This document shows positions 33,695-34,857 of a stretch of DNA of 64,000 bases, piece after piece. The position numbers and the translations under genes were made by a program. Numbering within the stretch: the stretch's first letter is position 1; each line of letters starts with the position of its first letter. Origin of the DNA: Pseudomonas phage Pa_AttikonH10; sequence record PQ741806.1; one strand, written 5' to 3'. The notes beneath the pieces were generated by a model. That model had not been told where the DNA came from and made no database searches. It saw only the letters and a program-made list of their open reading frames with translations.

Positions 33695-33952
33695 CTATTT
33701 ATTTACACAGATTAGAGTATGTTCTACTTTACTAGTACTAGAAGAAAAATAACGTAATAGAACACCATCACTGATTTTTACAGTCTCTACATTATTACGA
33801 ATAGCACTTGCTTTAGCTAGTTTTTGAATGCGCTCAATCGCGCTAAAACAAGTAGCCATGTCAGAGAACTCAGCGGTTGACTGCGATGCACCATTGGCTT
33901 GATAACCAGCGATACTGATACTACTAAAAAGAATTGCTAAAGTTGCATTCAT
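33695..33952 (-). CDS. small secreted two-cysteine protein (possible member of the secreted family)
   Basis: Signal peptide MNATLAILFSSISIAGYQA. Cysteines in ATCFSAI and LICVNK. Confidence 0.5.
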   Translation of the reverse strand: MNATLAILFSSISIAGYQANGASQSTAEFSDMATCFSAIERIQKLAKASAIRNNVETVKISDGVLLRYFSSSTSKVEHTLICVNK

Positions 33953-34857
33953 TTCTTACCACCTTTAATAACAGTGAGTTTTGGTGTACCGGTAGGACGA
34001 GAAGGTTTATTAATAATAACCTGCGAATTGGAAGAATTATTGAAATCCTCAACCATCTTATTTACATCATTGTCAAATGAATTAGATGTATTATCACCCG
34101 AGTCCACAGTTGATTCACTAACCACATTTGAAATAGGGTAACTGAGGAGTTCCATCATAAGTACATTGATGTTATCCTGATAGTTTTCATTACGTGTACA
34201 ATTAATAACCCGCTCACACCAATCCATAATTAATTCTGGTGCATTCTGTTTAATTACAGTTACCGCTACTCTAATATGTGCATCTAATTCTGGATTACTA
34301 AATTCAGTTACTCTGTTAATGGCGCTTTCAATCATCTGATCATGCTCATTCTCAGATGTATTCCTTACAACTAACTTACCATTAGTGGTATCGGCTTTAT
34401 TTTTAAAATTAACCTCAGTGACATTACCTACGGTAGTTAATACTGGGTTTTTGTCAACTACATTATTAACAGTTCCTTCTAATGTTGCACGAATAGTATC
34501 TGCATTGAGATATCTATCTACTAGTGGCATTTCAAAGAATGCGTTAGAATTATCATCAATAGGTGTAACTACACCCAATACTGCATAAAGAGGAAGTTTA
34601 ATACTGACCCCAACTCCATTTACTGTTACATTGAAAGAGATATATTCGTCACTGATATAAAAATTCTTTGCACAGCGTGGATGGATATTGAAAGTGATAG
34701 TGTGATCTTCTTTCGCATGCTTTAGAGCTACCTCAGATAAATCAGGTACTAATTGAGTATGTGCTACAATTAGAATATCTCTGAAGTTATTCTCAAGAAA
34801 CCAATCATAGGTAGCTCGAAGAATATGGCCAGTGAGTAATGATTTTACCTTTAGCAT
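33949..34857 (-). CDS. sspB: SspB-like ClpXP adaptor with long Asn/Ser/Asp-rich linker and a ClpX-binding-like C-terminal tail
   Basis: N-terminal about 110 aa align with E. coli SspB (LRA.Y.W.L.N, I..NI.PR, FN, G, V..PL.AVL, FE). The C-terminus PKLTVIKGGKK resembles the SspB XB tail RPALRVVK. Confidence 0.6.
   Translation of the reverse strand: MLKVKSLLTGHILRATYDWFLENNFRDILIVAHTQLVPDLSEVALKHAKEDHTITFNIHPRCAKNFYISDEYISFNVTVNGVGVSIKLPLYAVLGVVTPIDDNSNAFFEMPLVDRYLNADTIRATLEGTVNNVVDKNPVLTTVGNVTEVNFKNKADTTNGKLVVRNTSENEHDQMIESAINRVTEFSNPELDAHIRVAVTVIKQNAPELIMDWCERVINCTRNENYQDNINVLMMELLSYPISNVVSESTVDSGDNTSNSFDNDVNKMVEDFNNSSNSQVIINKPSRPTGTPKLTVIKGGKK

Follow-up and report, generated by a model that had tools for sequence, protein, structure and literature searches.

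gp232 of a phiKZ-type Pseudomonas phage: a diverged SspB homologue with a putative ClpX-docking tail

The gp232 gene and its SspB-type domain

The 64,000-nucleotide stretch of Pseudomonas phage Pa_AttikonH10 analyzed here (sequence record PQ741806.1; hereafter, the window) is, judged from its sequence, that of a phiKZ-type jumbo phage. Among nucleus-forming jumbo phages, phiKZ serves as the model, although functions have yet to be assigned to the majority of its ~370 genes. The present analysis concerns the open reading frame (ORF) at positions 33949..34857 on the minus strand, which the ORF list gives as a coding sequence of 302 amino acids plus stop codon and which is 100% identical to gp232 of phiKZ (PHIKZ232; NP_803798.1). 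Over its full length, gp232 matched PHROG 25970 (E = 5e-214), and the surrounding 3 kb shared 100% identity with Pseudomonas phage fnug and 99.9% with phiKZ. The gene forms part of a same-strand run that comprises, in this order, gp230.2, gp231, gp232, a small ORF, gp233, gp234, gp234.1, and the thymidylate synthase gene gp235. The first-pass annotation of this DNA, made from the letters alone, had interpreted gp232 as a phage-encoded SspB-like adaptor of the ClpXP protease, and our sequence comparisons and structural models support this interpretation.

SspB is a dimeric tethering adaptor with a disordered tail that ends in a peptide binding to the ClpX N-domain (PMC9963277). In gp232, an SspB-type substrate-binding domain was delimited at residues 8-126 (34480..34836, minus strand), using phmmer, hhalign, an AlphaFold2 (AF2) model analyzed with Foldseek, and a table of conserved positions. 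Within this domain lie the conserved motif of helix alpha-1, HILRATYDWFLEN, and, toward its C-terminus, a helix specific to the clade (P111...R115). When gp232 was compared by phmmer with all PDB sequences, the top matches were exclusively SspB chains, covering residues 10-113. Residues 11-108 aligned with Escherichia coli SspB (1ox9, 1ox8, 1yfn, and 8et3_Y) at E values of 1.4e-8 to 1.8e-8, and the matches to Haemophilus influenzae SspB (1ou9, 1ou8, 1zsz, and 1twb) ranged from ~3e-8 down to 5e-7. The alignment by hhalign of a profile of 11 phage-clade sequences with a profile of 32 bacterial SspBs gave a probability of 99.2% (E = 1e-19) over 101 columns. The predicted local distance difference test (pLDDT) score of the AF2 model was 70-83 across residues 8-126. 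When this model was compared with the PDB by Foldseek, each of the best 13 matches was an SspB structure (target template modeling score of 0.69-0.77; E = 3e-6 to 2e-5), and alpha-proteobacterial SspB orthologues followed. The N-terminal similarity noticed in the first-pass annotation is thus well beyond chance, and the significant profile and fold matches include both structures that had been suggested for comparison, 1OU8 and 1OX9.

The relationship is nevertheless remote. With the Pfam family PF04386 (SspB), gp232 scored 23.5 bits, under the gathering threshold of 27 bits; this family was matched by 11 of the 11 gp232-clade members at E <= 0.01. Nine SspB equivalog models of NCBIfam matched gp232, the best of them with an E value of 3.9e-13 and 49.7 bits, compared to a cut-off of 202 for that model. 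Since the scores remain below the Pfam and NCBIfam cut-offs, gp232 is to be regarded as a diverged homologue and not as an equivalog of bacterial SspB. Its identity to Pseudomonas SspB is 23%, which led us to reject a recent capture of the domain from the host. A Pfam match to FUR was also rejected (E = 0.0076, below threshold, and present in 1 of 11 clade members).

Bacterial SspB is well conserved only at the dimer interface and in the ssrA groove (PMC9963277). Among ~27 positions that are strongly conserved in the bacterial proteins, 14 are retained in gp232, including R15, A16, Y18, W20, and N24 of helix alpha-1 and I51, N54, and P57; the helix motif reads HILRATYDWFLEN as compared to YLLRAFYEWLLDN (pattern [YH][LI]LRAxYxWxx[DE]N). 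The core residues I51, N54, P57, F72, G78, P86, A89, and F104 are kept, and the bacterial ARF and RENG motifs, together with several prolines, have been lost. The retention of the alpha-1 motif and of the core residues argues that the SspB fold, and probably dimerization, are preserved; gp232 therefore probably dimerizes via helix alpha-1. Taken from sequence and model, residues 8-126 are an SspB-fold homologue, and the match is real but distant.

The C-terminal tail and the intervening region

Residues 286-302 (33952..34002, minus strand) form a putative ClpX-binding (XB) tail, SRPTGTPKLTVIK, that is followed by GGKK; the tail peptide is NKPSRPTGTPKLTVIKGGKK. This assignment is based on identity to a bacterial tail at 9 of 14 positions, on XB residue frequencies, and on conservation among homologues. 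The first-pass annotation had likened the ending PKLTVIKGGKK to the XB peptide of SspB, and the similarity proved to be stronger than claimed. Residues 285-298 of gp232 (PSRPTGTPKLTVIK) are identical to the Pseudomonas SspB tail (PPRPTGRPSLKVVK; PPRP[ST]GRPSLKVVK) at 9 of 14 positions. The latter is the ending of the best 120 SspB clusters obtained with an approximate Pseudomonas SspB query, of which those that are named belong to Pseudomonas or the related Paucimonas, none being named P. aeruginosa. No gp232 shuffle out of 20,000 reached 9 of 14, and three reached 8; when the window was translated in six frames, the runner-up among its 455 ORF stretches had 5. These data indicate that the gp232 tail is nearer to the docking peptide of the host genus than to the E. 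coli tail with which the first-pass annotation had compared it.

XB residue frequencies were derived from the 56 tails of canonical layout among 84 distant representatives, which had been found in an exhaustive search of 1.84 billion proteins. The predominant residues were P at position -7 (41/56), L at -5 (51/56), K, R, or T at -4 (21, 19, and 12 of 56), V, I, or L at -3 (25, 14, and 13), V or I at -2 (39 and 16), and K at -1 (47/56). With P, L, T, V, I, and K at these positions, gp232 carries a common residue at every constrained site. Its core PKLTVIK (P292-K-L-T-V-I-K298; 33964-33984, minus strand) conforms to the XB consensus [RK]PxL[RKT][VIL][VI]K, and the regular expression P.L[RKT][VIL][VI][KQ] occurs once in the six-frame translation of the 64 kb. 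Between gp232 and its metagenomic relative P0002, the last 39 residues are ~90% identical, as compared to 61% for the whole protein, which marks the tail as the most constrained part of the protein. Judging from these sequence features, gp232 is likely to bind the ClpX N-domain in some capacity.

The motif is followed by four extra residues, GGKK. An XB placed ahead of a GGS linker and a bait still recruits ClpXP in the CLIPPER constructs (XB-GGS-SBP; PMC12373786), and GGKK need therefore not prevent docking. Extensions after the XB are also present in several SspB-like proteins in the databases. In another variation of the tail, the metagenomic SspB-like protein P0048 (144 amino acids) contains two tandem XB-like motifs, KPKLTVVQRPKLTVVRNDPETQ. 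The combination of an XB with a basic end also brings up the reading that gp232 is mainly a substrate of ClpXP, with a short lifetime that would serve as a timing device. Basic C-termini, such as that of MuA, are a class of ClpX degron. In addition, an XB fused to eGFP is sufficient for slow ClpXP-dependent degradation (PMC12373786). Such a role would, however, leave the conserved SspB peptide-binding domain unexplained, and bacterial SspB has the same motif yet is not a notable substrate; we consider it very improbable.

The region between the SspB domain and the tail is composite, with predicted disorder at residues 128-168 and 239-285 that is interrupted by a predicted four-helix bundle at residues 169-238. 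The first linker (residues 128-168; 34354..34476, minus strand) is rich in V, N, and T and was predicted to be disordered except for a low-confidence beta-hairpin (AF2 pLDDT of 28-36). The inserted bundle (34144..34353, minus strand) is restricted to the phiKZ subclade; among the gp232-clade relatives, only phiKZ and P0002 carry it. When segment 165-248 was folded alone with AF2, four helices were obtained, with a pLDDT of 85 and a predicted template modeling score of 0.71. AF2 predicted disorder throughout residues 239-302, and the Asn/Ser/Asp-rich stretch is limited to residues 239-285 (34003..34143, minus strand; 51% N+S+D; pLDDT <50). The long low-complexity Asn/Ser/Asp linker of the first-pass annotation is thus confirmed for residues 239-285, whereas residues 169-238 are predicted to be a folded bundle instead. 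Within the Asn/Ser/Asp-rich linker, KMVEDFN (residues 267-273) aligns with KPLLDFG of the other clade members.

Residues 130-197 of gp232 showed a similarity above typical noise to SSL7, a superantigen-like protein of Staphylococcus aureus. The match (34267-34470, minus strand) spans 68 residues at ~35% identity, with an E value of ~0.002 in the PDB search and of 5e-6 with NCBIfam NF009887, where the score was 26 bits versus a cut-off of 313. It was judged to be compositional (N/T/V/K-rich), because AF2 predicts this region to be part disordered and part helical and because the search of 1.84 billion representatives, which gave 89 hits, returned no such protein.

When compared with bacterial SspB (E. 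coli, H. influenzae, and the Pseudomonas PA4427-type protein; PF04386; 1OX9, 1OU8, and 8ET3), gp232 thus has a homologous domain with the same predicted fold. Both share the alpha-1 motif, W20, N54, and F72, and an XB of the form PxL[RKT][VIL][VI]K, which in gp232 is preceded by a region predicted to be flexible in part. They differ in that gp232 is encoded by a lytic jumbo phage, is 23-30% identical to the bacterial proteins, has 302 amino acids instead of 135-165, and carries the predicted four-helix bundle in the linker and GGKK after the XB, in addition to lacking the ARF and RENG motifs.

Jumbo-phage relatives and proposed role during infection

A word-indexed homologue search with gp232 alone returned 2 hits, and exhaustive and profile searches were needed. 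By tblastn and profile searches, a gp232 clade was detected in Pseudomonas jumbo phages, including gp267 of the PS119XW/PA1C type (265 amino acids), WDS62141 of D6 (235 amino acids), gp299 of Psa21 (248 amino acids), and the metagenomic sequences P0002, P0005, P0006, and P0034. The SspB domains of PS119XW, D6, and Psa21 are 21-26% identical overall to that of gp232. Despite this divergence, the ending PxLx[VL]IxGGK[KA] is shared (...GKPKLTVIKGGKK; ...CPPHLRVIQGGKA; ...DGPNLTLIQGGKK), and a KPLLDFG-type motif, KMVEDFN in phiKZ, is found ~21 residues upstream of the clade tail. gp232 has all the clade features, namely, the SspB domain, the P..[VI][DE]R helix, [KM].[LV][LE]DF[GN], and the C-terminus PxLx[VL]IxGGK[KA]. 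In place of the four-helix bundle, the relatives other than phiKZ and P0002 have the motifs LPDGAYAVHG and ELMxRKPLAxRP. The retention of both domain and tail at 21-26% identity argues that both are needed, as delivery of a cargo requires. In their more general forms, the motifs that precede XB-GGK[KA] read LPDGA[YF]AV[HR]G, PTxxELMxRKP[LF]AxRP, and KPLLDFG, and they were seen in P0005, P0006, P0091-P0096, L003:1974-2681, and L004:1845-2591.

Other phage SspBs match the canonical bacterial proteins in size and arrangement, having an SspB domain and an XB that forms the C-terminus. These short proteins (PHROG 8945) include gp39 of the Erwinia phage RAY (150 amino acids; ...KKPTLTVVK), gp18 of the Pseudomonas phage pf16 (128 amino acids; ...KKPTLRVVK), and gp94 of the Ralstonia phage FLC4-3B (135 amino acids; ...KGFLSVVK). 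In contrast, the clade of gp232 (PHROG 25970) is a distinct one, found in Pseudomonas jumbo phages; its members have long tails that contain additional linear motifs and finish in GGK[KA]. A further SspB-like protein, LucasX_196 of a Xanthomonas phage (L007:1453-2019; 188 amino acids), is devoid of an XB and ends in ...SSMADFRARRKPSS, which we take to resemble the distinct C-terminal ClpX-binding tail of alpha-proteobacterial SspB. SspB-like genes are present in several jumbo-phage lineages, with Pseudomonas, Erwinia, Ralstonia, and Xanthomonas as hosts, and this recurrence suggests a general strategy.

[quoted passage not shown] The gp232 gene itself is labeled "stringent starvation protein B" in the GenBank records of the phiKZ-like phages Bobae and Churi, and NCBI refers to the related fragment P0003, which is 70% identical to gp232 over the covered part, as SspB. 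In the literature searched, we found no functional study of any phage SspB homologue, and a 2026 review on jumbo phages does not mention ClpX or SspB. What is new in the gp232 clade is the architecture, namely, a long multi-motif tail and a host-mimicking XB with GGK[KA], to which phiKZ adds its private, predicted four-helix bundle.

We favor, at a probability of about 50%, the reading that gp232 is a cytoplasmic SspB-type tethering and delivery adaptor that docks on host ClpX for ClpXP. The SspB domain, as a probable alpha-1 dimer, would bind a peptide on a cargo protein, and the C-terminal SRPTGTPKLTVIK would engage the N-domain of P. aeruginosa ClpX, which binds zinc, in the manner of the SspB XB peptide. 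Through the long, presumably flexible stretch in between, the cargo would then be tethered to the unfoldase, resulting in faster degradation. For bacterial SspB, the binding to ClpX is stabilized mainly by the tail tether (PMC9963277). The four-helix bundle and the KMVEDFN motif may be extra binding surfaces that could add a second cargo or contact. As to the cargo, ssrA-tagged proteins would be the default candidate. No ssrA-like motifs (AANDENY/ANDDNY-like, LAA-ending ORFs) were present in the six-frame translation of the window, which is uninformative on the cargo because the specificity of gp232 may differ.

The available data on expression and location bear on this proposal. The gp232 protein and the host proteins ClpX, ClpP1, and SspB are present in phage-infected PAO1, according to data from size-exclusion chromatography coupled to mass spectrometry (SEC-MS). 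When fused to mNeonGreen, gp232 gave a diffuse signal that lay outside the phage nucleus (PMC10449902), and RAY gp39 is likewise cytoplasmic (PMC10299810). ClpXP resides in the cytoplasm and thus in the same compartment as both phage proteins, which we count in favor of the adaptor reading. gp232 was absent from virions and enriched in the shell-enriched fraction, as one of six such proteins (PMC10449902). This co-fractionation would also fit a repurposed SspB fold without a role at ClpX, in which a peptide-binding or scaffolding module acts, for example, at the chimallin shell and the tail binds another partner or is a leftover. The additional conserved clade motifs KPLLDFG, LPDGAYAVHG, and ELMxRKPLAxRP, as well as the existence of LucasX_196 without any XB, are compatible with this idea. 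However, the shell localization was not confirmed by microscopy (PMC10449902), and the conservation of the last 39 residues between gp232 and P0002 speaks against this reading. Moreover, the tail follows the XB of the host genus (RPTG.P.L.V[VI]K) much more tightly than the remainder of gp232 follows host SspB, and a host-like tail on a 23%-identical protein would be difficult to account for if its partner were not the N-domain of host ClpX. We therefore consider a function unrelated to ClpX to be improbable.

Delivery by gp232, as opposed to blockade, would be suggested by the joint conservation of domain and tail, and the tail evidence in itself would equally fit a decoy or anti-adaptor. The XB of such a protein would occupy ClpX N-domains, and its SspB domain may sequester tagged proteins, with no delivery taking place. 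Blocking host SspB, RssB-type adaptors, and N-domain-dependent substrates in this way would shield phage proteins or rewire proteolysis. There is a precedent in that SspB and the isolated XBR (ClpX-binding region) peptide competitively inhibit the sigma-S turnover that RssB mediates, at ClpX's zinc-binding domain (PMC7226468). In the groove region, gp232 departs from several of the residues conserved among bacteria, and neither a very long linker with an inserted domain nor GGKK is required for delivery. On the other hand, a short XB peptide would suffice for titration, yet the fold, the alpha-1 motif, and N54, W20, and F72 have been kept across phage clades at 21-26% identity, which indicates that the domain itself is under selection. 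The canonical short SspBs RAY gp39, pf16 gp18, and FLC4-3B gp94, in turn, resemble ordinary delivery adaptors. Blockade of this kind appears to us to be possible but clearly less probable than delivery.

Several observations weigh against the delivery adaptor. The SEC-MS study reported no complex between gp232 and ClpX and placed gp232 with the shell-enriched proteins (PMC10449902), and the literature searched contains no binding or degradation data for gp232 or any phage SspB. The NCBIfam scores are far under the equivalog cut-offs (at most 49.7 bits versus 135-319). Nine strongly conserved positions are altered (P11, T27, P28, P42, A59, R75, F76, E97, and G101 in E. coli numbering), implying that the recognition of ssrA may be lost or changed. 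In addition, the linker comprises ~160 residues, including a folded domain, as compared to ~50 disordered residues in E. coli SspB, and the geometry of delivery could consequently differ. Finally, the XB of gp232 stops short of the C-terminal end, unlike in nearly all bacterial SspBs.

The inserted bundle leads to a further, rather doubtful possibility, according to which gp232 would be a natural two-bait degrader. The bundle, either by itself or in combination with the diverged groove, would bind a folded host or phage protein lacking a degron of its own, and the XB would recruit ClpX(P). Candidate targets are a host defense or stress factor and a constituent of the chimallin shell, on its cytoplasmic side, given that gp232 co-fractionated with the shell. 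If this were the case, the phage would reprogram which substrates the host unfoldase acts on, or where it acts, in a manner similar to CLIPPER or PROTAC molecules. The engineered XB degraders, namely, CLIPPERs and split adaptors based on FKBP12-XB, also use an XB anchor to tether a target to ClpXP, as proposed for gp232, and the CLIPPER XB is functional when not C-terminal (PMC12373786), which is the placement seen in gp232. They differ in that CLIPPERs are synthetic peptides and gp232 is a natural phage protein. Jumbo phages also encode homologues of ClpS, ClpP, and ClpX (PMC7824862), which have in common with the delivery adaptor proposed here the strategy of manipulating energy-dependent proteolysis of the host, but the protein families and the target proteases are different.

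SPO1 gp53, a ClpC adaptor-like protein, and the Lon inhibitors T4 PinA and T7 gp4.5 follow this strategy as well, likewise with other protein families and target proteases. Translation of every phage protein takes place in the cytoplasm, where those that stay outside the protective phage nucleus face host proteolysis. A host-like ClpX-docking peptide in a phage protein offers a testable handle on the dealings of jumbo phages with cytoplasmic proteolysis. If gp232 delivers, identification of the cargo would point to a protein, of host or phage, whose removal the phage needs; if gp232 instead blocks ClpX, nature would have supplied an inhibitor of an antibacterial target. Under both readings, the tail composed of XB and GGKK and the helical insert widen the design range of SspB-type adaptors, which is of relevance to tools for targeted degradation in bacteria.

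Transcription unit and neighboring genes

Terminator-like hairpins flank the run that contains gp232, at 35592-35613 and 30860-30877. The upstream hairpin (35592..35613, minus strand), with a 9-bp stem and a 4-nt loop, appears to close the preceding transcription unit. Directly after it, upstream of gp230.2-gp231-gp232, pattern and sequence identify an element resembling a phiKZ early promoter (35557..35578, minus strand), composed of a T-run (35571-35578) followed by TATATTAC (35557-35564). It belongs to a repeated unit of ~35 nt, cAtTAAATTTTtTTTGAaATCTATATTACA, found on the minus strand at 20093, 26829, and 35557, and also at 6344 and 51083; a second subtype is present on the minus strand at 17408, 23757, and 27261. 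Of the TATATTAC sites, 12/14 are on the coding strand. According to the published description (PMC8244752), the phiKZ early promoter combines an extended -10 box with a T-rich motif located upstream of -19; element 35557..35578 fits this description and may therefore function as a promoter. gp232 lies behind this early-promoter-like element, in a same-strand run that ends with thymidylate synthase, and may be expressed early. The ~35-nt repeat is often located directly 3' of a GC-rich terminator hairpin.

The gene that follows gp232 encodes 85 amino acids (33695..33952, minus strand), beginning within an ATGA that also contains the stop codon of gp232. The first-pass annotation had described it as a small secreted protein with two Cys; the ORF, exactly two Cys, and a hydrophobic N-terminus were indeed found. 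It corresponds to PHROG 32080, and gp268 of PS119XW, at the same position, is homologous to it (32% identity, E = 3e-10). A weak, sub-threshold Pfam match to the ComGE prepilin family was noted for gp268. The 85-amino-acid ORF is intact in the window, whereas in the phiKZ reference genome an amber codon (CAG->TAG) replaces codon 24 and the two fragments carry the names PHIKZ232.1 and PHIKZ232.2, indicating that the ORF was dispensable in that lab stock. Coordinates listed with this ORF are L001:4906-5163 and L002:3298-3546.

Parts of this gene order recur in the relatives. In D6, the gene downstream of the SspB-like gene is related to that downstream of gp232, and in PS119XW, a thymidylate synthase gene is located a few genes downstream, as in phiKZ. 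Two genes downstream of the SspB-like gene, Psa21 and D6 have a "cell division protein FtsH" that we reassigned as a BCS1-like AAA ATPase (BCS1_N plus AAA) and not a protease (L005:1545-2909, Psa21 gp301; D6 equivalent from L003:3352); phiKZ does not have it at that place. No tRNA or tmRNA was present within the 64-kb window. In GenBank MT995928.1 (phage U5), an "HNH homing endonuclease" is among the features under the gp232 match, which may be a mis-annotation or an overlapping call. The thymidylate synthase gp235, the last gene of the gp232-containing run (30886-32352, minus strand), is unusually long, with 488 amino acids.

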